From positions 1-36,026 of IMG/VR virus record IMGVR_UViG_3300030392_000710: DNA of 36,026 nt, one strand, 5' to 3'. Positions within the stretch are counted from its first letter, which is position 1, and every line of letters starts with the position of its first letter. Below the pieces are notes generated by a model. The model was not told where the DNA came from. It did no database searches and saw only the letters and a program-made list of their open reading frames with translations. The DNA is from a virus (lineage: Duplodnaviria > Caudoviricetes). The position numbers and the translations under genes were made by a program. Of this stretch, positions 9,700 to 34,173 are shown one piece after another.

Positions 9700-10983
9700 A
9701 TGAAGTTTTTAATGCTCCTGTACCAAATACAGGACTACGGCGGCATAATCAACCATGCGGAGCACCTTGCAAAAGGTATAAAAGAAAACGGACACGATAT
9801 AGACTTCTTACAGCTAGTACCAAAAACAGAAGTCCAAAACCGCCCCCGCAAACTAAAAGACGAACACCAATACCGTACCTATGGCACAGGGTATTTGCAT
9901 CATCAGGCACGGGGATGGGCTAATTTACCTAAAGTAGCTTACCTTGGTGAGGAGAATACGCAGCGGTTTAAGGAGCTGTGTTCTACTTACGATGCCGTGC
10001 TGTGGCATATCCCGGTACCCACGCTTAATAAGGACAATAAAAACATATCCGCGTGGCAAGACTTATACAACCACGGCACTAAGAACATAGCCATTATCCA
10101 CGACGGCAACCTGCAAAAGCTGTACCCACACCTGTTGCATGTTTCAAAGCACTTTTATGCCGCCGTATGCGTACACGAAGCCGCCTTTAACTCCGCAGCG
10201 TGTTTGGATATTCCCCGTAAAATGATTCTAAACCCCTTTTGCATAGACAACGTCACCACGTACCGTGACTTTGGCGAACGGTCCGGTTTTGCTGCCGTGC
10301 AGATCTTCAAGGCATGGAAACGAATGCACACCCTAGTAAAAGCAATTCCCCACATGCAAAACACCGAGCAAAAGCTAATCGGTGGCGCGGGTATTGAATA
10401 CCGCTACATGACCAGTGCAGACAAATGCAAGCCACAGTACTACAACGAAGCTGGCGAAAGAATATGGGATGCCGCCCTGCACAACGGTATGCTGTACCAA
10501 GGGGTGATACCTAACAGTAAGGTACACACCTTATTAGGGGGGGTAAAGCTGCAAATAGACCCTAGCTGGTCAGTTAAGTATTCGGGGTATGGGGCGCATT
10601 TTAACCGTACCACTGTAGAGGCAATAATTCAGGGTGCGGTGCCCGTAGCCACCGACTTAGGCATGGCTAACAGTAAGGTGTTTTTAAGAGGCAAAAACTA
10701 CATAGAACTCCCCCATACGGCTACACCAAAGGAATTTGCCGAAATCATAGACAACGCCCTGCTGGACAACACCCAATGGAGCCGCATAAGGGAATATAAC
10801 CTGCTCTTGCGTAAGCATTTTGAACAATGCTACGTGGCTAAACAATACGCTGACCTAGTAACCAGCCTAGACGGCACCATAACGGGCAAACCCGACACAA
10901 TTACACAGGAAGCCTGTAAAAAGAACCTTGGATTCTTCAACATTTTACCAGACACAGACCCCATACAAGCGGGGTTGTTTTAA
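9700..10983 (+). CDS. GT-B fold glycosyltransferase (GT4-like), candidate DNA-modifying enzyme
   Basis: N-terminal YGGIINHAEHL...GHDIDF, IIHDG, and C-terminal FNRTTVEAIIQGAVPVATD resembling the GT4 donor-binding signature; first gene of the replication/modification operon. Confidence 0.7.
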   Translation: MKFLMLLYQIQDYGGIINHAEHLAKGIKENGHDIDFLQLVPKTEVQNRPRKLKDEHQYRTYGTGYLHHQARGWANLPKVAYLGEENTQRFKELCSTYDAVLWHIPVPTLNKDNKNISAWQDLYNHGTKNIAIIHDGNLQKLYPHLLHVSKHFYAAVCVHEAAFNSAACLDIPRKMILNPFCIDNVTTYRDFGERSGFAAVQIFKAWKRMHTLVKAIPHMQNTEQKLIGGAGIEYRYMTSADKCKPQYYNEAGERIWDAALHNGMLYQGVIPNSKVHTLLGGVKLQIDPSWSVKYSGYGAHFNRTTVEAIIQGAVPVATDLGMANSKVFLRGKNYIELPHTATPKEFAEIIDNALLDNTQWSRIREYNLLLRKHFEQCYVAKQYADLVTSLDGTITGKPDTITQEACKKNLGFFNILPDTDPIQAGLF

Positions 10984-10986
10984 CAC

Positions 10987-11015
10987 TTGCTAGTCCAGTA
11001 GCCAGCCCGTATAGT
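10987..11015 (+). promoter_or_regulatory. Sigma70-like promoter
   Basis: TTGCTA-17 nt-TATAGT upstream of 11044. Confidence 0.55.
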
Positions 11016-11043
11016 TAATAACCAGCAGCATGGGGATAAAGCC

Positions 11044-11388
11044 ATGACGGTTTACATAGTGCAAGAGATGCGTGGTCGGGATATTACCGACGCCGCCTCC
11101 TTTGGCAATTTAGAAATACTCCTCCCAGCAAAAGAACAAGTCAGTTTCAGCACACAGCCCACCGTAAGGCGTATGGCTGCGGTGTTGTCAAAGTTCACAG
11201 ATGATGACTACTTGCTCTTGGGCGGAGACCCAGCGGGGGTGGCAATAGCGGCGTCGTTAGCGGCGCAATACAACCGTGGGCGTTACAAATTGCTCAAGTG
11301 GGACAGGCTGGAAAAGCAGTACTTTCCCCTACAGGTGGATATTTTACAACGCACCACTCCCGAACCCACAGGAGAACCAAGTGAGTAG
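11044..11388 (+). CDS. Phage hypothetical protein (114 aa)
   Basis: RBS-like GGGGA; natural-looking alpha/beta sequence (VYIVQE...DDYLLLGGDP...LLKWDR); overlaps the next start. Confidence 0.7.
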   Translation: MTVYIVQEMRGRDITDAASFGNLEILLPAKEQVSFSTQPTVRRMAAVLSKFTDDDYLLLGGDPAGVAIAASLAAQYNRGRYKLLKWDRLEKQYFPLQVDILQRTTPEPTGEPSE

Positions 11389-11935
11389 TTTTGAAGACGT
11401 AGCCAATGAGCTGTCCGCTGTGGACGAGGTAGGTCTAGGCCGGGTAAGTAAGTTGGCCAGCACCCAATTAGCCTTAGAACAGCACGTACAAAACATAGAA
11501 GAACAATTAAAACAGGCAAAACGCGACCTTAGAGAAATAGCAGAAGACAAACTCCCCGCAGCCATGTTGGAATATGGCATAAGAGAATTCAAACTGGAAG
11601 ACGGTAGCCAGATCACGGTTAAGAACTTCTACGGAGCCAGCATAACTAAAAACAAGCAAGAAGAGGCTTTTTCTTGGCTTGTGAACAACGGCTTTGGTGA
11701 CTTGATTAAAAACCAAGTCAGCGTTAGTTTTGTACGTGGGCAAGAACACAATGCCACCGAGCTTTTACAAGAGCTAGAAAAACGGCAATATCAGCCCGCA
11801 ACCCGTAAATGGGTAGAACCAATGACGCTAAAAGCGTTTGCCCGAGAGCAGGTGGAAGCTGGAAACACGCTCCCATCTGATTTGTTTGGCCTTTTTATTG
11901 GTGAACAGGCCAAAATTACTAAACCAAAGAGGTGA
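11381..11935 (+). CDS. Coiled-coil replication/recombination-associated hypothetical protein
   Basis: GTG 11381 after GGAG RBS (track start 11276 overlaps the previous gene); N-terminal coiled coil, WL..NG.GDLIKN and VEPMTLKAFARE motifs. Confidence 0.65.
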   Translation: MSSFEDVANELSAVDEVGLGRVSKLASTQLALEQHVQNIEEQLKQAKRDLREIAEDKLPAAMLEYGIREFKLEDGSQITVKNFYGASITKNKQEEAFSWLVNNGFGDLIKNQVSVSFVRGQEHNATELLQELEKRQYQPATRKWVEPMTLKAFAREQVEAGNTLPSDLFGLFIGEQAKITKPKR

Positions 11936-11938
11936 TAC

Positions 11939-12739
11939 ATGGCTAGTAAAGCACTTGCCGAAGTCGATGAGACTCAAAATCAAATCGCCGTTTATAAGGA
12001 ACTGGAAGATTATGCTGCGGAAGGATTTAGTGAGGTAAAAACAGAAGACCTTGCTATACCTTTTTTACGTATTCTGGCGCAGTTAAGTCCACAGGTTGAT
12101 AAGCGGAACGGTGCTTACATAGAGGGTGCCGAAGCAGGGATGATCTTTAACACTGTGCTGAACGAAGTCTACGACGGAGAACAGGGCATACAGGTTATAC
12201 CCGTACACTACAATAGACGCTTTGTAGAATGGACACCCCGTGAAAAGGGCGGTGGCTATATGGGTAGTTACGAAACCACCGACCCCATAGTCAACACTGT
12301 TGTACGCAACGAGCGTGGAGAGGATTTATTGCCAAACGGCAATTTACTCGCCAACACGGCACAGTTTTTTGTGCTGTACGAGCACCCCACGCAGGGGCTA
12401 CAGCGTGCAATGATTCCCATGACAAGCACACAGTTGAAAAAGTCGCGTAAGTGGTTGACACAAATGCAGTCTTTAACAGCCAGTGGTGCTAATGGTATAT
12501 ACACGTTACCTATGATGTCACAGGTGTACCGTTTGACTACCGTTGCAGAGCGTAACGATAAGGGTAGCTGGTTTGGGTGGGAAATAACCCGTGCCCACAG
12601 CATTAACCTAGAACTCGACCAAGGTAAGGCTAACTTTGACACCGCCGTGGCCTTTGCTCGTAGTGTTAAAGCTGGGGATGTACAGGTCAGAGCAGAACAG
12701 CCAACAGACCCAGACGAGCAGGACGATTCTATTATCTAA
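11939..12739 (+). CDS. Putative single-stranded DNA-binding protein
   Basis: GAGGTG RBS; IPFLRILAQLSPQV, aromatic GSWFGW and acidic C-terminal tail (DPDEQDDSII); directly upstream of primase. Confidence 0.6.
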   Translation: MASKALAEVDETQNQIAVYKELEDYAAEGFSEVKTEDLAIPFLRILAQLSPQVDKRNGAYIEGAEAGMIFNTVLNEVYDGEQGIQVIPVHYNRRFVEWTPREKGGGYMGSYETTDPIVNTVVRNERGEDLLPNGNLLANTAQFFVLYEHPTQGLQRAMIPMTSTQLKKSRKWLTQMQSLTASGANGIYTLPMMSQVYRLTTVAERNDKGSWFGWEITRAHSINLELDQGKANFDTAVAFARSVKAGDVQVRAEQPTDPDEQDDSII

Positions 12740-15974: not shown

Positions 15975-16301
15975 ATGAGTTCTGGAGAAGAAGGAGCAGC
16001 AATTATTGCTGCGGTTGACGAGGCCATTGAAAGGTTAGACCACGAACAACCTGCACCAATAAAGCCAAAGCACAGAAGAGTACACATCAAGCCTGATGTT
16101 ATTATTTCCAAGCGAATGGAAAAGCCCCCCATCCGTAGTGACACCAACCGTTACCGTAATATGGTGATAGTAATGCAGTGTCATACAGTGGGCGAAGCCC
16201 TTAAACGGCTAAAAGCACTTGAAAAGTCCCCCGGAGGCAGTACAGATATTAAGCTTGCCGAAAAGGCGGGTGCAATAGCGTTGTTACACCCCTCAGACTA
16301 G
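15975..16301 (+). CDS. Small basic hypothetical protein (108 aa), possibly DNA-binding
   Basis: Strong RBS (GAGGT); K/R-rich; first gene of the nucleotide-modification sub-cluster. Confidence 0.65.
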   Translation: MSSGEEGAAIIAAVDEAIERLDHEQPAPIKPKHRRVHIKPDVIISKRMEKPPIRSDTNRYRNMVIVMQCHTVGEALKRLKALEKSPGGSTDIKLAEKAGAIALLHPSD

Positions 16302-16311: not shown

Positions 16312-17232
16312 ATCTGGCATAAAGCAGCTTACGCTAACCCCGAAGCCGTAGAAAGGTTTTTTGGCTGGATTAATGAGCGACACGCCATTTACCAGCGCAG
16401 AGCAGCAGGACACCCTGCCCCTTGGACTAAAGACCCCATACTCCAGCAGTACAAGTTTACTAACCCCTTTAGAGAAAATGACCGTGTTACCGTATGGATG
16501 CGGAAAAACTGGACTGACCCCAACAAGGATAGACCTTGGGGGGAGATTATATTTAATTGCTGCTTGTTTAGGTCGGTGGGGACTTCTGCTTTTGCACAAG
16601 AACACGGATGGGTAACGAGTTGGGATCCTGACTACACTAAATCTATTATTGAGGAAAGACTGAGTAATAACCTCAGCACCTTTACGGGAGCCTATATTGT
16701 TACAAATCAAGGACTTAAACTTAAGAAGTCAGAGGTGGTGTCCGATTACTTTTTAACCCCTATATGGGAATCACGCAATAGCCTAGTACTGGTGGCTGAA
16801 ATAGCTAACACCCTGCAAGACGTACACAAAATTCTGGGTACTTTTACGGGTTGGGGCGGCGGAGGGTTTATGGCCTATGAGGTAGTAACAGACCTTAATT
16901 ACACCCCTGTGCTGCAACACGCACAGGACAGATTTTCTTGGGCTAACGCTGGCCCCGGAGCTAAACGAGGACTAAACCGCATACAAGACCGCCCCCTTAA
17001 CAAGAGCATTACTCCATCTCAGGCTAATAAAGAGATGCAGGAACTCTTGTTTGCTGCGGTGTACTATTGCAGAGGGCATTGCCCAATAAATCAAATAGAC
17101 ATGCGTACCATAGAGCACAGCTTATGCGAATGGGACAAATACGAGCGCGTACGACTAGGCCAAGGTAGGCCAAGGGCGCGTTTTGATGGGTTTAACAGGG
17201 ATAGTGCTACCGTTATTGGAGCCGTTGGGTGA
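16312..17232 (+). CDS. 5-hmdU DNA kinase-like protein (aGPT-Pplase1 / HMUDK helical family), apparent ATC start
   Basis: The frame is open upstream of track start 16498 and reads FFGWINERHAIYQRRAAGHPAPWTKDPILQQYKFTNPFRENDRVT, the family N-terminal signature. Also FMAYEVVTDL, GPGAKRGL, RTIEHSLCEWDKY. GGGAG RBS at 16301-16305, then in-frame ATC at 16312. Confidence 0.8.
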   Translation: MWHKAAYANPEAVERFFGWINERHAIYQRRAAGHPAPWTKDPILQQYKFTNPFRENDRVTVWMRKNWTDPNKDRPWGEIIFNCCLFRSVGTSAFAQEHGWVTSWDPDYTKSIIEERLSNNLSTFTGAYIVTNQGLKLKKSEVVSDYFLTPIWESRNSLVLVAEIANTLQDVHKILGTFTGWGGGGFMAYEVVTDLNYTPVLQHAQDRFSWANAGPGAKRGLNRIQDRPLNKSITPSQANKEMQELLFAAVYYCRGHCPINQIDMRTIEHSLCEWDKYERVRLGQGRPRARFDGFNRDSATVIGAVG

Positions 17233-18320
17233 GCCCCCCGTTAGTTTACCCGGATTTATCCCCCGTTAAGGGGGTTAGAACTTTTACTGTGAAAAACCCC
17301 AGCGAAGCCCTATACCTTTGTAAATGTGCCATAGAAAAAGAGGGCACCCCAGTGGAAACCCGCAATGGCTCCGCTTTAGAATTTGATACCCCCGTAGCCA
17401 TTACCTACAACAAACCACGCGAGAGAGTACTTTTTTACGCACAAAGAGATGCTAACCCTGTATTCCACTTAATGGAATCACTATGGATGTTACAGGGGCG
17501 CAACGATGTTGAATGGATCAGCCAATTTAATGGAAGAATAAACACCTACAGTGATGACGGGGCGCATTTCCATGGGGCTTATGGCTACAGGTGGAAAACG
17601 TGGTTCAAAAAAGACCAGTTAGAACACGCCACCCACCGCTTACTAACGTACAAAAACGACAGACGCACTGTACTTACCATGTGGGATCCGCACCACGATT
17701 TAGTAAAAACAAACGACGGTAAAGACTACCCCTGCAATACCCAGATTTTTCTGAAGAAAAGAGACAACTACCTAGACATGACCGTTATTAACCGTAGTAA
17801 CGATATGATCTGGGGAGCCTTGGGGGCTAACGCGGTACACATGTCGTTTTTACAGGAGTATATGGCTGCAAAAACAGGCACAAAGGTGGGAATTTACACC
17901 CAATTCAGCAATAATTTACACGTATACTTGGACACTTTGGAAAAGCTCAACACTCCGCAGCCCCTACGGGCTGACTACGATGCCTACGGCACACGTTCAA
18001 TAAAGCCCCAGCCCCTAGTGGACGATATAGAATGTTTTAACAAAGAACTAGAGCTCTTTTTTAAGGTAGACCCTATTACATGGGCTTACTATGACTGGAC
18101 ACCGCGTGGGAGCGGAAGTTCGGGCAGGTGGGTAACTCCCTTGTGGAAAAATTCCTTTTTCCCCGGAGTAGCGTTGCCAATGTTAAAGACATGGCAACTA
18201 TATAAGAAAAAAGACCTTGTGGCTGCAAGGGAAGAGACTTGTAAGATTACCTCCCCAGATTGGGCAATAGCATTAAGAGAATGGCTAGATAGAAGACGGA
18301 TTAGAACCCATGCCAAGTAA
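17229..18320 (+). CDS. Thymidylate-synthase-family protein, probable dUMP hydroxymethylase
   Basis: GAYGYRW, DRRTVL.MWDP, catalytic DYPCN, NRSND..WGA.GAN (Asn indicates a dUMP-type substrate), NNLHVY; coupled to the 5-hmdU kinase gene. Confidence 0.82.
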   Translation: MSPPLVYPDLSPVKGVRTFTVKNPSEALYLCKCAIEKEGTPVETRNGSALEFDTPVAITYNKPRERVLFYAQRDANPVFHLMESLWMLQGRNDVEWISQFNGRINTYSDDGAHFHGAYGYRWKTWFKKDQLEHATHRLLTYKNDRRTVLTMWDPHHDLVKTNDGKDYPCNTQIFLKKRDNYLDMTVINRSNDMIWGALGANAVHMSFLQEYMAAKTGTKVGIYTQFSNNLHVYLDTLEKLNTPQPLRADYDAYGTRSIKPQPLVDDIECFNKELELFFKVDPITWAYYDWTPRGSGSSGRWVTPLWKNSFFPGVALPMLKTWQLYKKKDLVAAREETCKITSPDWAIALREWLDRRRIRTHAK

Positions 18321-18609
18321 AACCATAGAAACAGTACAAAAACTACTAGAATCTGATTTAATAGGTCTAACCGAAGCAGAACAAGCCTATGGCAATAGTT
18401 GGAAAAAACGCGGAGGCATAGGCGCATTTATGATGTTGGCCCGTAAATGGGATCGTATAGAAAATCAAGTAAAGACCCATGATTACGACGTGTTAAAAGC
18501 CCTACAGGCAGATGGGTCCGAAACAGGAATATTAGACGACATAAGAGACTTACGCAGGTACTTATTGCTGGTAGAGTCTGAGATAGTGATATGGAAAAAT
18601 CAAACGTAA
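18310..18609 (+). CDS. Small all-alpha nucleotide-modification-associated protein (MazG-like pyrophosphatase candidate)
   Basis: YGNSWKKRGG...ARKWDRIEN...DDIRDLRRY pattern; between the TS-like gene and PolA. Confidence 0.55.
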   Translation: MPSKTIETVQKLLESDLIGLTEAEQAYGNSWKKRGGIGAFMMLARKWDRIENQVKTHDYDVLKALQADGSETGILDDIRDLRRYLLLVESEIVIWKNQT

Positions 18610-18776
18610 TTTACGAACAGGAAGCAGCGCGGGAGTCTAATTTAGATGTACCTATTACGGCTATTTGCCATTGTAAAAAGGAAACAAAAGACCTCACTTA
18701 CAGAACGCTCAAGAATAAGTGGCCGCATTGTTCATGTAGGCAGTCCATGAAGATATTAACCCAAGATGCAAGTTAG
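18591..18776 (+). CDS. Small Cys-containing hypothetical protein (61 aa)
   Basis: CHC...CSC pairs; fills the gap with overlaps on both sides. Confidence 0.5.
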   Translation: MEKSNVIYEQEAARESNLDVPITAICHCKKETKDLTYRTLKNKWPHCSCRQSMKILTQDAS

Positions 18777-20628: not shown

Positions 20629-21127
20629 CAACTTAGTTGCCCTTTTAGAAAACCGCTTGTTAGGGGGACAAGTAACACGCTACCACACCCGACCAGAAGT
20701 AGGAGAAAATCAAAGCGTAGCCGAGCACACTTGGCGTGCTTTAGTAATACTCAATACCCTGTGGCCAGAAACCAGCAAACAGGCCATGTTGTATTTGCTC
20801 TACCACGACGTAACCGAGGCCGAGCTAGGCGATTTACCTGCCACCACCAAGTGGAAGTACCAATTTTTGGCTGAGGAGTACCGCAGGGCGGAGTCTGAGT
20901 GTACAAAAACACTTGAAATAACTTACGAAATCACAGAAAGAGAAAAAAGCATCTGCAAAATGGCAGATATGTTAGAGTTAGTGCTACATTGCTATGGGAA
21001 AATGCAAAAAGGAAACACGTTGGCCAGACCTATTTTTGAGAATGGGATACATTTTCTCAGGAACAACTTTTCAGACAACCCTAGCTTCCCCCCCGTTGAA
21101 AAAGTACTAACTGAGTTGGAAAAATAA
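20618..21127 (+). CDS. HD-domain phosphohydrolase (YfbR-like 5'-deoxynucleotidase)
   Basis: RYHT...SVAEH...YHD..EAELGD...ADMLE; probable TTG start at 20618 after GGGGGA. Confidence 0.8.
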   Translation: MPSNNLVALLENRLLGGQVTRYHTRPEVGENQSVAEHTWRALVILNTLWPETSKQAMLYLLYHDVTEAELGDLPATTKWKYQFLAEEYRRAESECTKTLEITYEITEREKSICKMADMLELVLHCYGKMQKGNTLARPIFENGIHFLRNNFSDNPSFPPVEKVLTELEK

Positions 21128-25510: not shown

Positions 25511-25524
25511 GTCAAGTGGCAACT

Positions 25525-25574
25525 CCTTAAAATGGGCACTATACTATAAGGGTACAAACAGCCACAGAAAGGGG
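25525..25574 (+). promoter_or_regulatory. Repeated promoter+RBS cassette, copy 1
   Basis: CCTTAAAATGGGCAC-TATACT-ATAAGGGTACAAACAGCCAC-AGAAAGGGG, ATG at 25581. Confidence 0.85.
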
Positions 25575-25580
25575 CACTAC

Positions 25581-26228
25581 ATGACAACACCATACATAAG
25601 TCCACTAAAGGACTTTGCCAAAGCTTACGAACCCGTAACAGCGGCATTAAACCCGTTTAACGAGTTCTACAGTGTGGAGTACTTTAACTACAATCCTAAC
25701 GTGGGTAGGATTTCCCGCAAATGGACCAATGACCCCGCAGGCGACTTGGAGTTAAACTACTGGCAGGATCGGGAAGCAACAGAAAAAAACGGCTACCTGC
25801 CTCTGCTTGCTATGCAAACAACCGAACTAGACGCTACGTGCTTTATAGAACTTGGCAAAGCCGACGCGGAAAAAATGCACCGCCGCACTCCCAACCTGTT
25901 TGCGTACATAGAACGCATAGCACACCGCCTGTGGGAAGCACAAGAGGTACGGGAAACCACATTCCTTAACTGGTACGACCGTAAGCCCGGTACCACACTT
26001 CCACGGGGTTTTATTAGCCTTAGAGAGGAGGTTTTACATTGGAGTTCCCAAAGCGTGGTGCTGGTGCTAGAGCTGGGGCGCGAGGATGACGCCGTACTAA
26101 GTAAAGTAATCAGCATAAACGGCAAAAAAGACTGGAGCTACGTGTGGGGTTTAATCCCCATGCCCACCATGGGGTCGGGAGAATGGCATTTTAGCAACGA
26201 GCCGACCTATAACCTCCAAACTTCTTAA
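25581..26228 (+). CDS. Hypothetical protein (215 aa)
   Basis: Bounded by cassette copies 1 and 2. Confidence 0.75.
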   Translation: MTTPYISPLKDFAKAYEPVTAALNPFNEFYSVEYFNYNPNVGRISRKWTNDPAGDLELNYWQDREATEKNGYLPLLAMQTTELDATCFIELGKADAEKMHRRTPNLFAYIERIAHRLWEAQEVRETTFLNWYDRKPGTTLPRGFISLREEVLHWSSQSVVLVLELGREDDAVLSKVISINGKKDWSYVWGLIPMPTMGSGEWHFSNEPTYNLQTS

Positions 26229-26232
26229 CTGG

Positions 26233-26290
26233 TTGTGGCTCCTTAAAATGGGCACTATACTATAAGGGTATAAGCAACCACAGAAAGGGG
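26233..26290 (+). promoter_or_regulatory. Repeated promoter+RBS cassette, copy 2
   Basis: TTGTGG-17 nt (CTCCTTAAAATGGGCAC)-TATACT-ATAAGGGTATAAGCAACCAC-AGAAAGGGG. Confidence 0.85.
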
Positions 26291-26297
26291 AAAGCAC

Positions 26298-26615
26298 ATG
26301 TTTCAGGAAAAATACGGAAAAATAATTAAAGAAGATTTGAGGCAAGAGGAAGGCGAAGCTCTTATAAAAGAGCTAGAAGCCGCTAACCCAAACAGATGGT
26401 ACGTGAACGTATACCATCGTGCCGTACTGCTGAGAAGAGGAAGGGCCAAAAATCCTAATGAACCCTCATACCATAATTGTTTTGCCGTGGAGGAAGTCAG
26501 CAGTGAGGCAATAAAAAATAGGCACGAAGAAGACTCCATGAATTGTACAGGTCACTATCGTAGACCTAACATATTAGCCACTGGCTATTTTATTGACGAA
26601 CGCGAAATACTATAA
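26298..26615 (+). CDS. Hypothetical protein (105 aa)
   Basis: Starts after cassette 2; its stop lies inside cassette 3. Confidence 0.75.
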   Translation: MFQEKYGKIIKEDLRQEEGEALIKELEAANPNRWYVNVYHRAVLLRRGRAKNPNEPSYHNCFAVEEVSSEAIKNRHEEDSMNCTGHYRRPNILATGYFIDEREIL

Positions 26616-26640
26616 GGGTACATACAACCAAAGAAAGGGG
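26607..26640 (+). promoter_or_regulatory. Repeated cassette, 5'-truncated copy 3
   Basis: ATACTATAAGGGTACATACAACCAAAGAAAGGGG, identical to the 3' part of the copy at 27877. Confidence 0.8.
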
Positions 26641-26646
26641 AAATAA

Positions 26647-26844
26647 ATGAAAACGGAACATGGTCCATTAACACTGTCTGTGGAAGGATACTTCAGCCCC
26701 AGAGAAATAAAAGCCATTCAAAGTGGTAAAGCAATGGTGTTCTTAGAGCTGGAAGATGACGCTATACAACGAGAATTTGATGTAGACAAGAACAGCCTTA
26801 AACAAGGTGAAAAACCATATGGCGTTAACAGCAGCGCAGACTAG
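26647..26844 (+). CDS. Hypothetical protein (65 aa)
   Basis: Starts after the cassette 3 RBS. Confidence 0.65.
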   Translation: MKTEHGPLTLSVEGYFSPREIKAIQSGKAMVFLELEDDAIQREFDVDKNSLKQGEKPYGVNSSAD

Positions 26845-27004
26845 GGGTGTTCTAGCACGCAGGGCTTTATTTGAGTCCTACAAGGAAACTCTAGCCAATA
26901 CCGGGTGTACTAAACCCTACGACATAATTATGGAGACTATCCATAATTTGGAATCAAAAGGCTACAGGATTACCAAAACTCCACAGAAAGGGGTAAAACC
27001 ATGA
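26807..27004 (+). CDS. Hypothetical protein (~61-65 aa)
   Basis: AAGGTG upstream of ATG ~26819; ends overlapping the next start. Confidence 0.55.
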   Translation: MKNHMALTAAQTRGVLARRALFESYKETLANTGCTKPYDIIMETIHNLESKGYRITKTPQKGVKP

Positions 27005-27348
27005 GTACAAGAGCCACTTACCAGTTTGTTCCCGCAGACCAAAGATTTAGACCCATCACCACGGTCTACGTTCACCATGACGGGTACCCAGAAGGTGCAG
27101 CAATGTATCTAGAGGGCGTGGAAACTGCAGAACAGTTTATTCGCAAAAACAACAAAGCAGAAATAACGGACAGTCACCAGACGCACTCCGACACAGAGTA
27201 CCGCTACACTATTTACGAGGGCAATGGTTTGCTGAACGTTGAAAAGAGAACCAATGTTAATTATTGGAGCGGAGGGAGCGTAATAGCGGAGTGGGACTCC
27301 ATTTTTGAGGGCCTCCTGACCCGGTTTACCGAAAACGGAGGCATCTAA
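27001..27348 (+). CDS. Phage hypothetical protein with MSTR...Y.HHDGYPEG motif (115 aa)
   Basis: Preceded by an RBS half-cassette CCACAGAAAGGGGTAAAACC (26981-27000). Confidence 0.75.
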   Translation: MSTRATYQFVPADQRFRPITTVYVHHDGYPEGAAMYLEGVETAEQFIRKNNKAEITDSHQTHSDTEYRYTIYEGNGLLNVEKRTNVNYWSGGSVIAEWDSIFEGLLTRFTENGGI

Positions 27349-27362
27349 AGTATGTGGCGGTT

Positions 27363-27412
27363 CCTTAAAATGGGCACTATACTATAAGGGTATAAGCAAC
27401 CACAGAAAGGGG
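27363..27412 (+). promoter_or_regulatory. Repeated promoter+RBS cassette, copy 4
   Basis: 50 nt identical to 26241-26290. Confidence 0.85.
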
Positions 27413-27419
27413 TAAAACC

Positions 27420-27866
27420 ATGAGTACAACCAAAGACGGCTGGTGCATCACGCGGCCATTTAGACAAGACCCAGAGGAGTTCCTTAACAAGCTCTCCTGC
27501 GAAAACGAAAAAGATAACGCAACACCTCTTAACTGGGTAGAGTCCATGGCGGTGGTGTCGGCTATTAGGTACGTTATACTCACCCACCTGCCTGACTGCC
27601 ACGGCATGACAGACTCTGACTTTAATAACTACGAGTGCTGCTTTTATGAGGGTGACTACGGTTTAGACACACCAGCAGACATAGACCGTGTTCTTACAAT
27701 ATTGCCAAAGTCTGTTATAGAGTGGAACGAAGAATTCACTCTGGGCACTAAGTTTAATATCCGTACGACACGGTATTTGGACTACACTTACATTGACGTA
27801 CACTGGGGGGAGGATCGCGGTGGACCGTCAGTGATTCCGCTGTACCTGCGCCTAGACACAAAGTAG
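27420..27866 (+). CDS. Hypothetical protein (148 aa)
   Basis: Bounded by cassettes. Confidence 0.75.
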   Translation: MSTTKDGWCITRPFRQDPEEFLNKLSCENEKDNATPLNWVESMAVVSAIRYVILTHLPDCHGMTDSDFNNYECCFYEGDYGLDTPADIDRVLTILPKSVIEWNEEFTLGTKFNIRTTRYLDYTYIDVHWGEDRGGPSVIPLYLRLDTK

Positions 27867-27876
27867 TATGGCGGTT

Positions 27877-27926
27877 CCTTAAAATGGGCACTATACTATA
27901 AGGGTACATACAACCAAAGAAAGGGG
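27877..27926 (+). promoter_or_regulatory. Repeated promoter+RBS cassette, copy 5
   Basis: CCTTAAAATGGGCACTATACTATAAGGGTACATACAACCAAAGAAAGGGG. Confidence 0.85.
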
Positions 27927-27932
27927 AAAAAT

Positions 27933-28343
27933 ATGTATTCACAACAACAGTATCTAGAGGAGTTAAACTACGCCAACGACAGGCGTAACTGCGCCCACGC
28001 ACCAGAAAAAATTACGGTATACCTCCCAGAGGAAGAAGCCGAGGTAGAACTGCCCACTAAGTACGTGGTCTGCGACGTGTGCCAAGGCGAAGGCTCCTAC
28101 GTTAACCCCGCAATTGACTGCGGCGGTATGTTCTTTACTGATGAGGAATACGAAGACTTCCAAGAGGAATACCACCGTGGCGACTACGACGTAACCTGCA
28201 ATCGCTGCCAAGGCAAACGTGTAATAAAGGAAGTGGACTGGGACGCCACCCCCCAAGAACTCCTGAAAGCGTACAAAGCCCAACAAAAAGAACTAGACGC
28301 CCTAGCACGAGAGGAGGCGTGGGAACGCAGCAGGGGGTGTTAA
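27933..28343 (+). CDS. Protein with DnaJ-type CxxCxGxG zinc-finger repeats (136 aa)
   Basis: CDVCQGEG...CNRCQGKR. Confidence 0.75.
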   Translation: MYSQQQYLEELNYANDRRNCAHAPEKITVYLPEEEAEVELPTKYVVCDVCQGEGSYVNPAIDCGGMFFTDEEYEDFQEEYHRGDYDVTCNRCQGKRVIKEVDWDATPQELLKAYKAQQKELDALAREEAWERSRGC

Positions 28344-28345
28344 GT

Positions 28346-28395
28346 CCTTAAAACAGACCTTATACTGTAAGGGCATAAGTAACCACAGAAAGGGT
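28346..28395 (+). promoter_or_regulatory. Repeated promoter+RBS cassette, copy 6 (variant)
   Basis: CCTTAAAACAGACCT-TATACT-GTAAGGGCATAAGTAACCAC-AGAAAGGGT. Confidence 0.8.
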
Positions 28396-28401
28396 AAACA
28401 C

Positions 28402-28731
28402 ATGACCAACAACCCAAAAGGAGACTGCTTTGCCGCAGCGGGACGCGCCATACTCAACGGGGACTCCACAACGGAAATGCGGCTGGTGCATGCGGTCGTT
28501 ACGCAACCACTGCAACCGTCTTGTTCGTACCCGCACGGGTTCAACCTAGTGGGGGAAACCGTAATAGATAACAGCAACGGCGGTTGCCTGACAATGGCCA
28601 AACAGGAGTATTTTAATACCTTTAAGATACGCCAAAAGGAAGGCCTCTACGCTGAATACACCGCAGGCGAGGCGCTGTTGAAACTGGTGCAGAGTGGGAA
28701 TTTCGGCCCGTGGGATCTCGGGGGGTATTAA
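28402..28731 (+). CDS. Hypothetical protein with possible Cys-His-Asp triad (109 aa)
   Basis: GDCF...YPHGF...VIDNSNG...FGPW. Confidence 0.7.
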   Translation: MTNNPKGDCFAAAGRAILNGDSTTEMRLVHAVVTQPLQPSCSYPHGFNLVGETVIDNSNGGCLTMAKQEYFNTFKIRQKEGLYAEYTAGEALLKLVQSGNFGPWDLGGY

Positions 28732-28733
28732 AT

Positions 28734-28783
28734 CCTTAAAACAGACCCTATACTATAAGGGTAAGTACAACCAAAGAAAGGGT
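28734..28783 (+). promoter_or_regulatory. Repeated promoter+RBS cassette, copy 7 (variant)
   Basis: CCTTAAAACAGACCC-TATACT-ATAAGGGTAAGTACAACCAA-AGAAAGGGT. Confidence 0.8.
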
Positions 28784-28789
28784 AAACAA

Positions 28790-29215
28790 ATGGAAAAACC
28801 AAACCAAGACGGCTGGTACACCTACCAGACCAAGGACCACACACAGGGGTTCTTTGGCCAACTGGCACTGGAAATAGAAACTCTAGAAAAGCACGAACAA
28901 CAACACTACATGCTTCTAAAATCACTGGTAGAAACGCTACTGGTCACGCGCCCCACGTACGACTACTACTTTAGTGAGTGCTACGACACCCCCACCCCCG
29001 CAGACATGCCACGGCAGTCAGGCAGTGAGTGGCAAACCCTGTACGACAACAGCCCCCTGTATGGGAAACCCTACTGGCCTTATGCCTACGACACCATATA
29101 CGTAGCGGACAGCTACGGCGACTATGTGTACTTTGCCCTCTGCCGTAACGGGTGCAGTCACAGTAGCGCACTTGCTGAATACATAAGGGTGAACACAGTG
29201 GCGGCTCCTACGTAA
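28790..29215 (+). CDS. Tyr-rich hypothetical protein (141 aa)
   Basis: ATG 28790 follows the cassette RBS (track start 28694 reads through the cassette). Confidence 0.75.
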   Translation: MEKPNQDGWYTYQTKDHTQGFFGQLALEIETLEKHEQQHYMLLKSLVETLLVTRPTYDYYFSECYDTPTPADMPRQSGSEWQTLYDNSPLYGKPYWPYAYDTIYVADSYGDYVYFALCRNGCSHSSALAEYIRVNTVAAPT

Positions 29216-29256
29216 GGAGCCTATACTGTAAGGGTACAAGCAACCACAGAAAGGGT
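29198..29256 (+). promoter_or_regulatory. Repeated promoter+RBS cassette, copy 8 (variant with hairpin spacer)
   Basis: GTGGC-GGCTCCTACGTAAGGAGCC-TATACT-GTAAGGGTACAAGCAACCAC-AGAAAGGGT. Confidence 0.8.
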
Positions 29257-29262
29257 AAACAC

Positions 29263-29607
29263 ATGTTAAAAATGGAAATAGATGGTATAAACGAACCCGT
29301 AGCCGAATGGCTACCACTTAGTCCGGGCGTGGACTACTGCACCACCAAACACGCCTTTGTAATTGAACTAGACAAAACCCCCCAAGACCCAGAGTGGGGA
29401 CCGCAGCACCTTACGGTGGAGGACTTCAAACCCTGCCACCCCCACACCGAATGGCTACCCGTAGAAGTCTACGAAGCCCGCACCGCAGACCACAACTACG
29501 TGCTCCTGCACCAGCTACAACACGAACCCCCCACACCAGAGTGGCCCATTGGCAACTCAACCCTTACGCTGGAATGCCTGCTTAGGTTCAAACGGGTGCC
29601 CGCATGA
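29263..29607 (+). CDS. Hypothetical protein (114 aa)
   Basis: Starts after cassette 8. Confidence 0.75.
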   Translation: MLKMEIDGINEPVAEWLPLSPGVDYCTTKHAFVIELDKTPQDPEWGPQHLTVEDFKPCHPHTEWLPVEVYEARTADHNYVLLHQLQHEPPTPEWPIGNSTLTLECLLRFKRVPA

Positions 29608-29801
29608 GGTGGCAACAACGGCAACGAAACCCAAGCCCATGGCAACGGAATTACAACTACACTCAAGGGGTTATTCGCGCGGGGTTACGGCCAACTCGGC
29701 ACAGGGCTGCCATAACCGCGTGCCGGAAAGCCCAAAACCCGGAATTCAAAATACTATGGCTGACCATAGCCGCCAAACTAAGACCACAGGACCAAGACTA
29801 A
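29604..29801 (+). CDS. Basic hypothetical protein with A.NPEF..W motif (65 aa)
   Basis: ATGA overlap; CRKAQNPEFKILW resembles MKRARNPEFRAMW in 23216..23413. Confidence 0.6.
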   Translation: MRWQQRQRNPSPWQRNYNYTQGVIRAGLRPTRHRAAITACRKAQNPEFKILWLTIAAKLRPQDQD

Positions 29802-29813
29802 AAGGAGCTCAAA

Positions 29814-30050
29814 ATGGGCTATATTATTACTCACAATGTAATTGACGAACGCAAAGCAAAAACAAGAACACCTCAGCAGGAAAAAACGCACCCACACTAC
29901 TTTGAACTACGGGACGATGACAACGAACTGTATTTCAGGGGCTACTCCACGTGTGACAGCTCCTTCGCTCCACTTGACTATGTAGGGGAATCTTACGGGT
30001 GTACTACAATAAGGTACAGGGGAAACACCGGGGAAATGAAAACACTGTAA
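29814..30050 (+). CDS. Phage hypothetical protein (78 aa)
   Basis: AAGGAG RBS; FELRDDDNELYFRG...FAPLD...GCTTIRY. Confidence 0.75.
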   Translation: MGYIITHNVIDERKAKTRTPQQEKTHPHYFELRDDDNELYFRGYSTCDSSFAPLDYVGESYGCTTIRYRGNTGEMKTL

Positions 30051-30266
30051 GTAGTCCTTAAACAAGGAACTCTGCTATATAGATGGTATATTGGACAAAA
30101 CGAGGTGTAAATAATTCTTAAGTCCAGGCTATACAATATCAAAGTATATAGGTTAGAGTCCTTATACAAGGACAGGTATTTCCGCTGATTTAAGTCCAAT
30201 TAAGGTGTTTTAATTTGAAGCCGTTTCTGGTACTATCACATCTATAGAACAAAGTGGCTCCTTACC

Positions 30267-30815
30267 ATGCCAAAGTCCAAACAAACTCATAAACCCAAGC
30301 TCGCAGTAGTGGCAAATCCGCGTACAGAAAAACACATAACTCCCAAACAAGAGGAGTTCTGCCGTATATACAGCAGCGAGGATGTGACCCAGACCGAAGC
30401 CGCCGTCCGTGCGGGGTACAGTCCTGCAAGTGCTCATGCTATAGCTAGTCAGTTACTTAACGGGCGGAATTTCCCCCATGTGGTTGCCAGAGTACGGGAA
30501 ATCAAATCCGAGTTGGCTAGAAAATACGAAGTCACCTTTGAAAATCATGTGCAAAAACTGGCGGAACTACGCGACACCGCCATACAGAACAACAATTACT
30601 CTGCAGCAGTCTCAGCTGAAAAGTACCGTGGTCAGGCTGCGGGGCTGTACATAGACCGCAAGGAAATACTACACGGAAAGATAGACCAGATGTCCCGAGA
30701 CGAGGTGCTGCGGGAAATAAAGAGACTCCAAGAGGACTTCCCGGGTCTAGCAGCGGTTGGCGCGGGAAATGTAATAGACGTTACGGACGCAGAACTGGTG
30801 GAGGAGTCCCCGTAA
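30267..30815 (+). CDS. terS: Terminase small subunit
   Basis: ITPKQEEFCRIY...TQTEAAVRAGYSPASAHAIASQLL...PHVVARVRE, the HTH pattern of Terminase_2-type TerS; SAAVSAEKYRGQAAGLY. Confidence 0.85.
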   Translation: MPKSKQTHKPKLAVVANPRTEKHITPKQEEFCRIYSSEDVTQTEAAVRAGYSPASAHAIASQLLNGRNFPHVVARVREIKSELARKYEVTFENHVQKLAELRDTAIQNNNYSAAVSAEKYRGQAAGLYIDRKEILHGKIDQMSRDEVLREIKRLQEDFPGLAAVGAGNVIDVTDAELVEESP

Positions 30816-30831
30816 GGGAACACGTTTAGAG

Positions 30832-31284
30832 TTGCCTAGCAAAGCGGAGAGTCGGCTGTGGTACCACCTGCGTGATGCCACTAAGAATCTGTACAGTGAA
30901 TACCCCATACTGTGGACACGCATAGAGTCATGGGCAGCTCCGGGTGTACCAGATTTACACGGTCTAATTAAGGGGCGGTCGTTTTGGGTGGAACTCAAGA
31001 TTCACAAATTAAAGTCGCTTAAGTCAGTAAAGTTCCGTCCACATCAAATATCTTGGCAGACTAAGTATTCTATGCACGGGGGACACGTTTGGAACTTGGT
31101 TAGTCATCCTCCGTCACGATCACTCAATTTATTTTCAGGAGAACAGGTCATGGGCCTAGCTGGATTGGACGCTGACGCTGCCCCGTTGACCCCGGTCTGG
31201 TCGTCGGGGATTCCTTTTAATTGGTCAGGACTCCTCAATCATCTTCAGTCTTCATCAATGGATTTACCTCCAGAAGAGACTTGA
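30832..31284 (+). CDS. PD-(D/E)xK nuclease (VRR-NUC / Holliday-junction resolvase-like)
   Basis: ESRLW...RIES...PGVPDL...FWVELK...RPHQISW. Confidence 0.8.
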   Translation: MPSKAESRLWYHLRDATKNLYSEYPILWTRIESWAAPGVPDLHGLIKGRSFWVELKIHKLKSLKSVKFRPHQISWQTKYSMHGGHVWNLVSHPPSRSLNLFSGEQVMGLAGLDADAAPLTPVWSSGIPFNWSGLLNHLQSSSMDLPPEET

Positions 31285-31432
31285 CTTGAACCGTGAACCA
31301 TAGCCCCTGTACCATGGTCAATAGTCTTCTGTCCTCTTCACTAATCATCAATCGTCCTCTTTCTTCAATTCTCGTCCATTCAAGTCTGGTCTACAGGCCA
31401 CGGGAGGATTGATAATAAAACCTTATTAAAGC

Positions 31433-31461
31433 TTGCAATGAACATGTTCCTAAAGTACACT
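31433..31461 (+). promoter_or_regulatory. Sigma70-like promoter
   Basis: TTGCAA-17 nt-TACACT with AT-rich upstream sequence. Confidence 0.65.
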
Positions 31462-31516
31462 ATACTTAGTGGGGTGCAAGGGGCAGTCCACAGTTTCTCA
31501 AAGAAAGGAGAATCAC

Positions 31517-31972
31517 GTGCAAAAAGCACTAACTAAGCAGATCACAGCCAAGGCCGTGGTCAATAAAGCCAAGGCAGTAGACTTTACTGTGCCACAGGGC
31601 GAAGAAGTCACCGCTGCTGCGGTATGGGAATGGGTACAAGCTGAGGCCGACGGGCAGCTAAACAATGTGGTAGTCACCCCATTGGATAATTGCCGCCTAA
31701 AGGACCAGAAGCGTACCCCATTCGGGTATTCTGGCAAGCCGGACGGCGTGCGGGCACGGTACCATGACTTCCACCTGTTTGGGCTGCGTCCCCCGCATGG
31801 TAAAAAGGGCGACCGCCGCCTAGGGGAAATCCTAGCAGCCATGCGTAAAATAGACGGCCACAGCAAGCAGACTATGCTCTGTACCGTGGCACTATTGAAC
31901 GGTGGTTACAGCCCGTCCGCAGGGACTTGGCTGCAAGGTCCTTGGATTAAGCTCAGCGTAGTTAAAGCGTAG
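31517..31972 (+). CDS. Hypothetical protein (151 aa), paralog of 33212..33841
   Basis: GTG 31517 after AAGAAAGGAG; shares NNV, PFGYSGKPDGVR, LFG and ALLNGGYSP with the downstream gene. Confidence 0.8.
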   Translation: MQKALTKQITAKAVVNKAKAVDFTVPQGEEVTAAAVWEWVQAEADGQLNNVVVTPLDNCRLKDQKRTPFGYSGKPDGVRARYHDFHLFGLRPPHGKKGDRRLGEILAAMRKIDGHSKQTMLCTVALLNGGYSPSAGTWLQGPWIKLSVVKA

Positions 31973-31987
31973 CTGAATCCGGGCAAG

Positions 31988-32019
31988 GGTCGGGGGGCTG
32001 TGGCTTCCCGGCCTTTTTT
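31988..32019 (+). terminator. Rho-independent terminator
   Basis: GGTCGGGGGGC-TGTG-GCTTCCCGGCC followed by TTTTTT. Confidence 0.7.
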
Positions 32020-32126
32020 ATACGTGAGATTTAGTATAAGAAATGATAAGACTTGACTAGACTCCCCCCTACCCATGGGCGTATCACTATACCTTTCATT
32101 ATAGATCCATATAGATCTGGGGTTAG

Positions 32127-32184
32127 TTGTGGCTCATGCCACCAGACTTTATACTGTAAGGGTAAGTACAACCACAGAAAGGGG
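32127..32184 (+). promoter_or_regulatory. Repeated promoter+RBS cassette, copy 9
   Basis: TTGTGG-17 nt-TATACT-GTAAGGGTAAGTACAACCAC-AGAAAGGGG. Confidence 0.8.
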
Positions 32185-32190
32185 TAATAA

Positions 32191-32655
32191 ATGAGCATCA
32201 GCTTTGATGGTATTAAAGACTTGACGGGGCCACTCAGCCCTGTTGCCTACACTCCCGACGAGTTAGAACATCAGGAGTACATGTTCTGGCGGCGTTACCG
32301 TATGCTGACTAAGCGCAAAAACAAACTCATTACCCGGTTGCAGTGCGGTCGTGTGCGGGTGGTAGAACTAGAAAAACGGTGCGCCAGTACTACACGGCCA
32401 TGGCATCCCCGCACACCAAACGTGTGTGACTGGGCTATGCAAGAGGGGGAAATTGTGCCAAGGCTTAACGCCACGGAAAAGGCAATAGAACGGCTGGTTG
32501 CTAAAATGGCAGCCATCGTGGCGGGGTATTCAGCCAGTATATATGCTGCTAACACTCCGGCGGCGGACCAGTTCATGGGTGCGGTGTACAAGGCAACGGA
32601 ATGGCAAACACAACAGTACTCCTGCCCCTGCTGGCGTTGCCAGTCCCGTGGGTAG
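32191..32655 (+). CDS. Hypothetical protein (154 aa)
   Basis: Follows cassette 9; C-terminal CPCWRC. Confidence 0.7.
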   Translation: MSISFDGIKDLTGPLSPVAYTPDELEHQEYMFWRRYRMLTKRKNKLITRLQCGRVRVVELEKRCASTTRPWHPRTPNVCDWAMQEGEIVPRLNATEKAIERLVAKMAAIVAGYSASIYAANTPAADQFMGAVYKATEWQTQQYSCPCWRCQSRG

Positions 32656-32659
32656 ACTT

Positions 32660-32696
32660 TACACTGTAAGGGTGGCAATTAAACCGCAGAAAGGGT
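32660..32696 (+). promoter_or_regulatory. Degenerate cassette, copy 10
   Basis: TACACT-GTAAGGGTGGCAATTAAACCGC-AGAAAGGGT. Confidence 0.65.
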
Positions 32697-32706
32697 AGAA
32701 AATACT

Positions 32707-32910
32707 ATGGCTATATGTAAAAACAAAATTGAACTATCAGTGTCCTCTGACGGGTGGAATTATAGGGTCAGAGAATATCCCTGTAGCAGCACTGGTCCAG
32801 AGGGTCAGTTGATTCTGTGTGAACAGTGCGAATGGAAGCGCAAGGACAAGCAAGCAGACATAGACCATGATAACGCTTGGTTGCGGTCCGCCGGGTGGGG
32901 GGAGATTTAA
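32707..32910 (+). CDS. Cys-containing hypothetical protein (67 aa)
   Basis: C...CSSTGPEGQLILCEQC; follows cassette 10. Confidence 0.7.
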   Translation: MAICKNKIELSVSSDGWNYRVREYPCSSTGPEGQLILCEQCEWKRKDKQADIDHDNAWLRSAGWGEI

Positions 32911-32996
32911 TGAAACTAACACCCACCGTGATTACGTTGCAGATAGGACTGGTCTGTTTAGTCTATATTCTGCTAGCGTTTATACGATTTACCTAA
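32910..32996 (+). CDS. 28-aa hydrophobic micro-protein
   Basis: MKLTPTVITLQIGLVCLVYILLAFIRFT*; GGGGAG RBS; TAATG overlap. Confidence 0.45.
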   Translation: MKLTPTVITLQIGLVCLVYILLAFIRFT

Positions 32997-33096
32997 AAGA
33001 GGATATATATACCCGATGAGGAGACTCTCGGCGCGGGTCTGCGTGCATAGGTGTGCTCTGCTCATATCGTATCAAGTCTATTCCTGGCTGGGGCTG

Positions 33097-33133
33097 GTTG
33101 GGCACACATTACTAGTTGGGCACACACTTACTA
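33097..33133 (+). repeat. Tandem 18/19-nt direct repeat just upstream of the -35 box
   Basis: GTTGGGCACACATTACTA followed by GTTGGGCACACACTTACTA. Confidence 0.8.
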
Positions 33134-33139
33134 TAGGGG

Positions 33140-33167
33140 TTGCAATACGTGTGCATAGGCCTATAAT
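33140..33167 (+). promoter_or_regulatory. Near-consensus sigma70 promoter
   Basis: TTGCAA-16 nt-TATAAT. Confidence 0.7.
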
Positions 33168-33211
33168 GTAACTGTGCACTAACGCACAGTTACCATATAA
33201 AGGGTAAACAA

Positions 33212-33841
33212 ATGGCAAAAAGTAATACAGTAAGTAAACCAGCAACCGCCACTGCTACAGTGGCCAAGGTTGCAACCGTACCCATACCTTGCGTGCAAAC
33301 GCAAAGCAATGGGGTTGTGGTACCAGTAACGTTTGCAAACCTAAATGGTTTTATTGCAAGTGTTGGTGGTGCTAATAACGTTACTTGGGTGTTAACCGCT
33401 GCGGGTAAGCTTGCAGTACAAAATGCACCACAACCGGGTATAAGTGTGTTGCCTTACGGGTATGGTGGCAAGCCAAACCATGTACGGCCTACACAAATTA
33501 ACTGGTTGTTGTATGGCATGCACCCACAGTATGCGCAGGGTGTTACCACCATACGCAACCAAAAGCTTAGCAAACCCCAGCAACAAGCTGCTGTGTTAAG
33601 TAGCAGGCAATGCCGGCATGGTGGCGCGTATAAGGTAACACCGGCTACCCAGCCAGTGTTTAATTTGCACGCTTACTACCAGCTTATTGCGCTGTGTACA
33701 GGTGTACCAAAAAGGCCATGCGTACTAATGGCCTTGTTAAATGGTGGTGGTAGCCCATGCAACCATACCTTTGGTGCAAAAACTTTGCCAAGTTTTGGCC
33801 AAGCCATTATTGCGCTACAAGTTGCCAAGCCTGCTAGCTAA
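33212..33841 (+). CDS. Hypothetical protein with no Asp or Glu (209 aa)
   Basis: Own promoter, AAAGGGT RBS and terminator; motifs PYGYGGKPNHVR and ALLNGGGSP shared with 31517..31972. Confidence 0.85.
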   Translation: MAKSNTVSKPATATATVAKVATVPIPCVQTQSNGVVVPVTFANLNGFIASVGGANNVTWVLTAAGKLAVQNAPQPGISVLPYGYGGKPNHVRPTQINWLLYGMHPQYAQGVTTIRNQKLSKPQQQAAVLSSRQCRHGGAYKVTPATQPVFNLHAYYQLIALCTGVPKRPCVLMALLNGGGSPCNHTFGAKTLPSFGQAIIALQVAKPAS

Positions 33842-33857
33842 ACACTAGCAGCAAACC

Positions 33858-33894
33858 GGGCGCGCTAGGGTTAGGTACCTAGCGCGCCCTTTTT
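33858..33894 (+). terminator. Rho-independent terminator
   Basis: Perfect 12-bp stem GGGCGCGCTAGG/CCTAGCGCGCCC, 8-nt loop, TTTTT. Confidence 0.88.
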
Positions 33895-34173
33895 GGTTTT
33901 TGGTGTTGGCTATAAAATAGCCAGCACCCCGCTTGCGGAGGAAGGTGTTATATGCATCGCATGTAACACTGTTTTGACTAGAAATCCTGGTGTATTTTTT
34001 ATAAAGTTCCTTACATGAACCAATGAACATTCCCCCTTGTTGTGGGTTGCTGGGCTGTGTGCTTTGTGTAATTATTGTGTTTTACACCCTAGTGCCCTTA
34101 GCCGATTGCTGGAGTTCAAACGGGGATAGTGTGTTCAGAGTGTGGTCCCCGCAGATGAACCACCCTGAACTTT

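Follow-up and report, generated by a model that had tools for sequence, protein, structure and literature searches.

A gene unit free of GA and TC beside an ordinary twin in marine phages with a predicted thymine-modification cassette

The DNA analysed here, called the window throughout, is a 36-kb virus record (IMG/VR IMGVR_UViG_3300030392_000710, 36,026 nucleotides) from a marine phage of the HTVC023P type. Near its right-hand end lies an island of 856 bp in which a dinucleotide count on both strands found zero GA and zero TC, and which holds a sigma70-like promoter, a ribosome-binding site (RBS), a gene and an intrinsic terminator (Table 1). An ordinary paralogue of the island gene stands 1.7 kb upstream; the two are referred to below as the purged and the ordinary twin. 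Further to the left is a cassette of predicted DNA-modification genes that includes homologues of thymidylate synthase (TS) and a glycosyltransferase (GT). An earlier note on this DNA, made from the letters alone, had pointed to a strongly promoted gene free of TC and GA. The gap was borne out (the runner-up in the window is 85 bp long), and a promoter is present, its strength being judged solely from the match to consensus.

For other dinucleotide pairs the longest gap in the window never exceeded 145 bp, and the probability of an 856-bp gap at the window's own GA/TC rate was about 1e-35 (about 6e-10 for the non-coding parts alone). Synonymous recoding of the 209-residue protein, with its lack of Asp and Glu kept, gave a mean of 16 GA and 21 TC in 5000 trials; none of the recodings (0/5000) reached zero GA or zero TC, and the minimum combined number of sites was 21, with about 37 on average. 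Thus, the purge acts on the DNA, and the composition of the protein is not its source. The GA/TC-free stretch opens 57 bp 5′ of the -35 hexamer and continues for about 100 bp past the stop codon, and the symmetric loss of TC and GA indicates that double-stranded DNA is the target. Even the leader that precedes about 10 early genes, CCACAGAAAGGG, appears in the island as CCATATAAAGGG. Four related loci had island proteins 51-90% identical, the purge stayed intact across the 57-71 synonymous codon differences between the window and L001 and L006, and the island of G001 had a single exception (L and G numbers denote related loci and records). As the island is kept in the four related loci and is spanned by assembled strains from four other runs, it is not an artefact.

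Table 1. Features of the window; positions are those of the whole stretch.
Feature	Position	Strand	Basis or remark
Predicted GT-B (GT4-like) glycosyltransferase	9700..10983	+	Homologues; most relatives place the GT between aGPT-PPlase1 and TS
Small protein	15975..16301	+	Just 5′ of aGPT-PPlase1 in 14/17 clade genomes
aGPT-PPlase1 (Pfam HMUDK_hel), not a kinase	16312..17232	+	Frame opens at ATC behind GGAG, as in G001
TS homologue, M6/YuA dUMP hydroxymethylase type	17229..18320	+	42% to M6 gp58, E 2e-76
Small cassette protein	18310..18609	+	No library match
Family A DNA polymerase	18766..20628	+	52-56% identical to HTVC023P-type phages (HTVC023P, HTVC027P, psg01)
HD-domain 5′-deoxynucleotidase	20582..21127	+	
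About 10 repeated early promoter/leader units	25516..32665	+	Most with TC at -16, many with GA at -5 from the -10 hexamer
Terminase small subunit (TerS)	30267..30815	+	
Ordinary twin gene, 151 aa, 13 Asp/Glu, 71 GA+TC per kb	31517..31972	+	Own promoter at 31433; paralogue match; AlphaFold2 model
GA/TC-free island, 856 bp	33083..33938	both	Count; counterparts of 850-875 bp in L001, L005, L006, L009
Sigma70-like promoter, TTGCAA-16-TATAAT	33140..33167	+	10/12 consensus matches; no TC/GA spacer pair
Leader/RBS of island, GA removed	33191..33211	+	Copy of the repeated early leader
Purged twin gene, 209 aa, no Asp/Glu, Ser = AGY only	33212..33841	+	Translation, family comparison
Intrinsic terminator	33858..33899	+	Top-ranked at 33858-33889; island continues to the boundary between CCCCGCTTGCG and GA at 33938

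The pair of twins was found throughout the clade, in which 79 further loci were fetched by means of the terminase large subunit (TerL). The first copy typically contained 65-150 GA+TC per kb and had conserved acidic residues, and the second, just 5′ of TerL, mostly contained 0-20 per kb, with Asp replaced by Asn, Gln, Ala or Gly and Glu by Thr, Ala or Leu; each copy had its own sigma70-like promoter. One full unit has lost these sites from both strands and has given up every acidic residue in the process; its twin has not. When 1.84 billion representatives were searched with a profile, 110 twin-family matches were obtained, among which three ankyrin proteins were false, and 44 of the 108 newly listed ones had less than 1% Asp/Glu. 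The twins matched nothing in Pfam, PHROGs, NCBIfam, PADLOC or PDB sequence searches, and no cultured phage gave a match. In a FastTree tree, unpurged or relaxed second twins nested among purged ones at several places, so the constraint was lost repeatedly. The second twins of two loci (L126:9322-9732 and L128:3344-3754) differed by 6 amino acids and 30 synonymous codons and had 0 and 12 GA/TC, respectively, and this near-identical pair appears to represent a recent relaxation.

The distribution of the island was compared between clades for loci in which 1.3 kb or more precedes TerL, which excluded 17/79 window-type, 42/80 psg01-type and 22/80 HTVC023P-type loci. A purged island was present 5′ of TerL in 51 of the 62 window-type loci and a member of the twin family in 60 of them; both were absent from all 38 psg01-type and all 58 HTVC023P-type loci. 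TS gave no match in the 19 longest control-clade records, 4 of them at least 90% complete, with a query that matched 41/50 elsewhere. Likewise, there was no island in HTVC023P (whole), HTVC027P and psg01 (1-30 kb), DSL-LC04 (1-45 kb) or M6 (whole). Long TS-bearing records (n = 26) had an island in 17 cases and none in 7, and 2 were incomplete there; G010 and G032 were left out as incomplete around TerL. The co-occurrence of island and modification genes that the earlier note had proposed to check was found at 51/62 against 0/96 loci, but with the exceptions weighed below, and the link of the island to the thymine-modification clade holds up. Three of the 17 island-bearing records are members of other phage families that carry a cassette of TS, aGPT-PPlase1 and GT (G033, G034 and G035), and these had GA/TC islands of their own on unrelated genes. 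These islands (G033:41817-42496, G034:38788, G035:8413-9484) lie on small basic genes whose C-terminus looks winged-helix-like by eye, and the one in G033 has GA/TC-rich flanks and four further short depleted stretches. In the G019 lineage (L101:9098-9760, L102:838-1500) the island slot is filled by a different Asp/Glu-poor gene, in which the residual TC/GA sites were all TCG (10/10 and 16/16, respectively). That TCG alone is tolerated in one lineage points to an enzyme with a context preference.

Outside the island, the early promoters of the window, G001, L006 and L009 carried TC about 16 bases 5′ of the -10 hexamer in 25/27 cases and GA about 5 bases from it in 19/27. Among 20 distinct spacers TC stood at exactly -16 in 17 and GA at exactly -5 in 14, with a variable middle, and the three island promoters found (3/3) lacked both the TC and the GA of the spacer. 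Thus, the dinucleotide step purged from one unit is kept elsewhere in the sub-lineage as a symmetric, inverted pair, one helical turn apart. The stretch just 5′ of the ordinary twin (window 31001-31500) is TC-rich, with 53 TC in 500 bp, and similar peaks precede the twins of relatives.

The polymerase PolA, the primase, helicase and TerS of the window were related to those of HTVC023P, and TS and aGPT-PPlase1 lie near polA. The earlier note had described the cassette as a TS-family hydroxymethylase, a 5-hydroxymethyldeoxyuridine (5-hmdU) DNA kinase-like protein and a glycosyltransferase. The first of these was confirmed by its identity to the M6/YuA-type dUMP hydroxymethylase, but the second was misassigned: HMUDK_hel (PF18723) is a helical aGPT-PPlase1 protein with no P-loop. 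A Walker-A scan of open reading frames (ORFs) of less than 330 aa in the window (a 36-kb fragment) and 11 relatives found no P-loop 5-hmdU kinase; the one P-loop protein it returned was in the early region of G001 only. No Pfam match to a clade 2 aGPT-PPlase amino-acid:DNA transferase was obtained among the 54 window ORFs. As for the glycosyltransferase, many of the 120 listed homologues have PF00534/PF13692 and an orthologue 60% identical to the window protein has GT4-model matches below cut-off (E 9e-6), but the window protein itself has no Pfam match. The usual gene order in relatives is aGPT-PPlase1, GT, TS, and the GT family is not fixed, as another family fills the slot in island-bearing genomes. 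This second GT-like family, without a Pfam match, fills the GT slot in G041-G046 and G048 (G042:20546-21514), and four of these records also have an FkbM methyltransferase. The presence of aGPT-PPlase1 without a kinase, together with GT-slot enzymes, suggests that direct glycosylation of 5-hydroxymethyluracil (hmU) is the likelier chemistry. Because of the apparent ATC start at window 16312-16314 (same place in G001), gene callers would cut aGPT-PPlase1 short by 62 residues. The small protein that follows TS may be of the Nmad1/MazG-like type, to judge by its look.

The twin protein is basic (net +16). The AlphaFold2 model of the ordinary twin had a pLDDT (predicted local distance difference test) of 88.7; its structural matches were weak (VIA rows Z 3-5, best Z 5.1) and included many winged-helix domains, of Fur, MecI/BlaI, SAMD1, KAT6A and MCM, over residues ~60-151, and Foldseek returned nothing at E<=0.001. 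For the purged twin, modelled with 9 sequences, pLDDT was 42 and the fold search was empty. The predicted twin domain resembles winged helices weakly. A further clue came from P0203, a 420-aa singleton in which a start that reads as EVE-like and the whole twin domain (E 8.7e-12, hhalign 98%) stand N-terminal to an HNH_2 nuclease. The closest bacterial relatives of this nuclease have what read as EVE-like or other sensor domains in the position of the twin domain, and none of 80 bacterial HNH loci had a twin domain. The G024 pair also matches the twin family (hhalign 85%). Comparison of the twin family with the island proteins of G019 and G033-G035, the 15975 family and M6 gp49 found no homology (hhalign <1%), though several of these proteins look winged-helix-like by eye. 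A link to Pam3_Gp34 (PF23977) was considered on the strength of an ESM feature match of 0.95 for the purged twin and rejected, as hhalign gave 0.09%, no Pfam match was found in 87 family members and the ESM Atlas gave no usable match for the ordinary twin.

We consider that the agent behind the purge is probably the phage's own modification of DNA at TpC. Thymine modification in M6, ViI and phiW-14 has a TG/TC context (PMC6449724), and the enzyme 5mYOX97 prefers NTC (PMC13229309). Bacterial RNA polymerase (RNAP) is inhibited where the major groove carries bulky groups or the hmU is phosphorylated; bulky C5 groups can silence it, but hmU itself and glucosyl-hmC (glucosylated 5-hydroxymethylcytosine) do not (PMC6457204, PMC11550810). 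In the scheme that we tentatively favour, and which may well be wrong, TS would make hmdUMP (5-hydroxymethyldeoxyuridine monophosphate) and the polymerase would incorporate it, after which the GT-slot enzyme and aGPT-PPlase1 would leave the virion DNA with a glycosylated base at TpC. This adduct would hinder sigma70 RNAP in promoters and along genes, and the purged twin would serve as a modification-free starter from which expression by the host RNAP is bootstrapped in a genome glycosylated at TpC thymine. Its product, a putative winged-helix-like DNA binder, would read and open marked sites, those of the ordinary twin among them, giving positive feedback. A bootstrap gene had been the central idea of the earlier note, and it gains from the arrangement of the twins, from the purging of a whole promoter-RBS-gene-terminator unit and from the TC/GA kept in other promoters. 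A broader version, in which TpC marks form a genetic switch with paired promoter operators and a reader that is encoded twice (in a mark-free copy, open to host RNAP on the incoming virion DNA, and in an ordinary copy turned on by the first) and that bacteria have captured for a nuclease directed at such phages, is conceivable but rather doubtful.

Several observations weigh against this scheme. Six records with the full cassette, of similar identity, have an unpurged second twin with 75-97 sites per kb (G003, G008 and G012, to which 18 further fragments added G009, G015 and G025), and five have the cassette but lack both the twins and the island (G026, G027, G028, G029 and G031). No gene content distinguished purged from unpurged genomes. 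M6, which is TG/TC-modified, has no island. The contrast between clades is confounded by clade and the counted loci are redundant. The promoters of both twins match the sigma70 consensus similarly; the spacer-pair promoters are paralogous repeats, and a crude scan did not find the pair in the rest of the clade, so that it is seen in the window's sub-lineage only. Templates with glucosyl-hmC are still transcribed (PMC11550810), the winged-helix match is weak, and P0203 is a singleton, one fusion among 110 family matches. Among possible explanations for the unpurged genomes, a GT residue (K to R/V) fits G003, G008 and G012 but fails in G025 and was rejected, and no other k-mer was absent from the unpurged twins beyond chance.

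The exceptions would be easier to understand if the agent were still the phage's own TpC modification but the threat a modification-dependent nuclease of the host (type IV or END-like), whose cutting the unmodified island escapes while its product, as a decoy reader, coats or masks modified sites, since dependence on the host would account for the recurrent relaxation in phages whose cassette is intact. END nucleases do attack hypermodified phages, and phages encode inhibitors of them (PMC12191111). In P0203 the twin domain is also joined to a modification-dependent kind of HNH_2, but this is the single singleton fusion, with none in the 80 bacterial loci. This explanation leaves TC/GA at fixed promoter positions unaccounted for, and a cut elsewhere would be just as lethal to the phage unless the island were the first part to enter, of which there was no evidence; we therefore regard it as unlikely. 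Alternatively, the twin protein may bind TC-marked DNA and silence or package it, its own unit being purged to avoid self-repression and the TC...GA spacers being operators for early-gene shut-off. Operators that lie in the spacer from -35 to -10 generally act as blocks to RNA polymerase, the protein is basic and the island adjoins TerL. However, the unpurged ordinary twin encodes the same family, and avoidance of self-repression would require the promoter to be clean but not the coding region, which makes this role quite unlikely.

Two further explanations dispense with a mark on the phage DNA. Until the phage has made an anti-defence protein, the island might avoid a host defence that acts on unmodified TC/GA (DarT, phosphorothioate systems, a TC deaminase or GA-containing restriction sites), with the cassette as a fellow traveller. 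Genome-wide depletion of GA/TC (rho 0.72) and the genomes with a cassette and no island are in its favour. Beyond the dinucleotide, though, the motifs associated with such defences were not avoided (GAAC 1.08, TCT 1.34, TNTC motifs 0.77-1.17), so that the DarT/Dnd alternative raised in the earlier note found no support in the counts; moreover, islands occur with the cassette across phage families and in none of 96 control loci, and TC is retained in promoters. This defence explanation is accordingly improbable. Finally, selection could have acted on the mRNA, through a GA-specific RNA toxin such as CmdT, or on a protein without acidic residues. The GA-free mRNA and the Asp/Glu-free protein are real, but the loss of TC is as complete as that of GA, the purged stretch extends beyond the -35 hexamer on one side and the terminator on the other, and about 37 sites would be expected from synonymous recoding. 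The strand symmetry of the purge already contradicts this explanation, which we regard as very improbable.

Parts of the proposed starter scheme have counterparts in known systems. The HTVC023P-type pelagiphage clades V, VIII and IX have TS and aG/PT-PPlase1, sometimes with a nucleotidase and a glucosyltransferase, which other clades lack (PMC9599517). This pelagiphage cluster of Wittmers et al. is the same phage group, with the same genes near polA as in the window, and from its ORFs G001 also appears to have curli genes, as there. In the accessible parts of that report the modification is likewise uncharacterised, and no island or twin gene is mentioned. The likeness to M6, ViI, phiW-14 and PaMx11 extends to the dUMP hydroxymethylase homologue, aGPT-PPlase1, the HD nucleotidase and the TG/TC context (PMC5889632, PMC8989533, PMC6449724), but the kinase of M6 is a P-loop protein in its own right (PMC8989533), whereas here a GT-B would stand in place of the kinase and transferase steps; M6 also lacks a TC- or TG-free island. 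The closest working analogy, though not a family, may be T4 MotA/AsiA, an early phage function by which promoters in glycosylated DNA become usable for the sigma70 RNAP of the host, by way of a box near -30 (PMC6755090). The early genes of T4 keep the modified base, however, the site in the present phage is a palindrome in the spacer, and no sequence or fold match between MotA and the twins was found. EVE-HNH and PUA-wH-HNH sensor nucleases are modification-dependent endonucleases (PMC11037411); P0203 bears the twin domain in the sensor slot, but the phage twins stand alone, and this is the one fusion.

The first-entering DNA of T7 and T5 is free of restriction sites. As proposed here, a short motif-free unit would be expressed first. 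The motifs avoided there are 4-8-bp host sites; in the present phage the purge removes a dinucleotide, costs the protein two amino acids and leaves an unpurged twin in place. No description of a purged twin island was found in the literature, most subscription journals being outside the reach of the search; the cassette is already described. The observation is real, conserved and unexplained by known systems, and the mechanism is what we infer from it. In an abundant group of marine phages, a gene that has shed one dinucleotide on both strands, and with it every Asp and Glu, next to a twin that has not, is a legible trace of DNA chemistry, and it predicts the modified context from sequence alone as TpC, or TC[ACT] in one lineage. 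It also bears on the way in which the host RNA polymerase can begin to transcribe a hypermodified phage genome. The testable parts are two GT families, aGPT-PPlase1 without a kinase, a small family without a library match that may read modified thymine, and near-identical purged and relaxed gene pairs that serve as natural controls.

Some minor features of the locus may be recorded. Across the whole window, TCGA occurs at 0.25 of the Markov expectation. There was no clear signal that the island marks a genome end: contigs ended 750-1000 bp before TerL in 9/79 cases, no ends of assembled strain contigs were seen at the island, and an imperfect 1.1-kb end repeat in G018 was the sole hint. In relatives TerL follows within about 0.2-0.5 kb downstream of the island, directly after it in L001, L009 and G001. 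In the window and in L006, a 610-codon ORF without a library match (window 34174-36006) lies between the island and the expected TerL. A direct repeat, TTGGGCACACA-TTACTA (window 33099-33132), lies 5′ of the island promoter, and a strain contig lacks one copy. At the other edge, the boundary between CCCCGCTTGCG and GA and a hairpin 3′ of it (window 33938-33975) are conserved in five loci and form a candidate packaging or late-promoter site.

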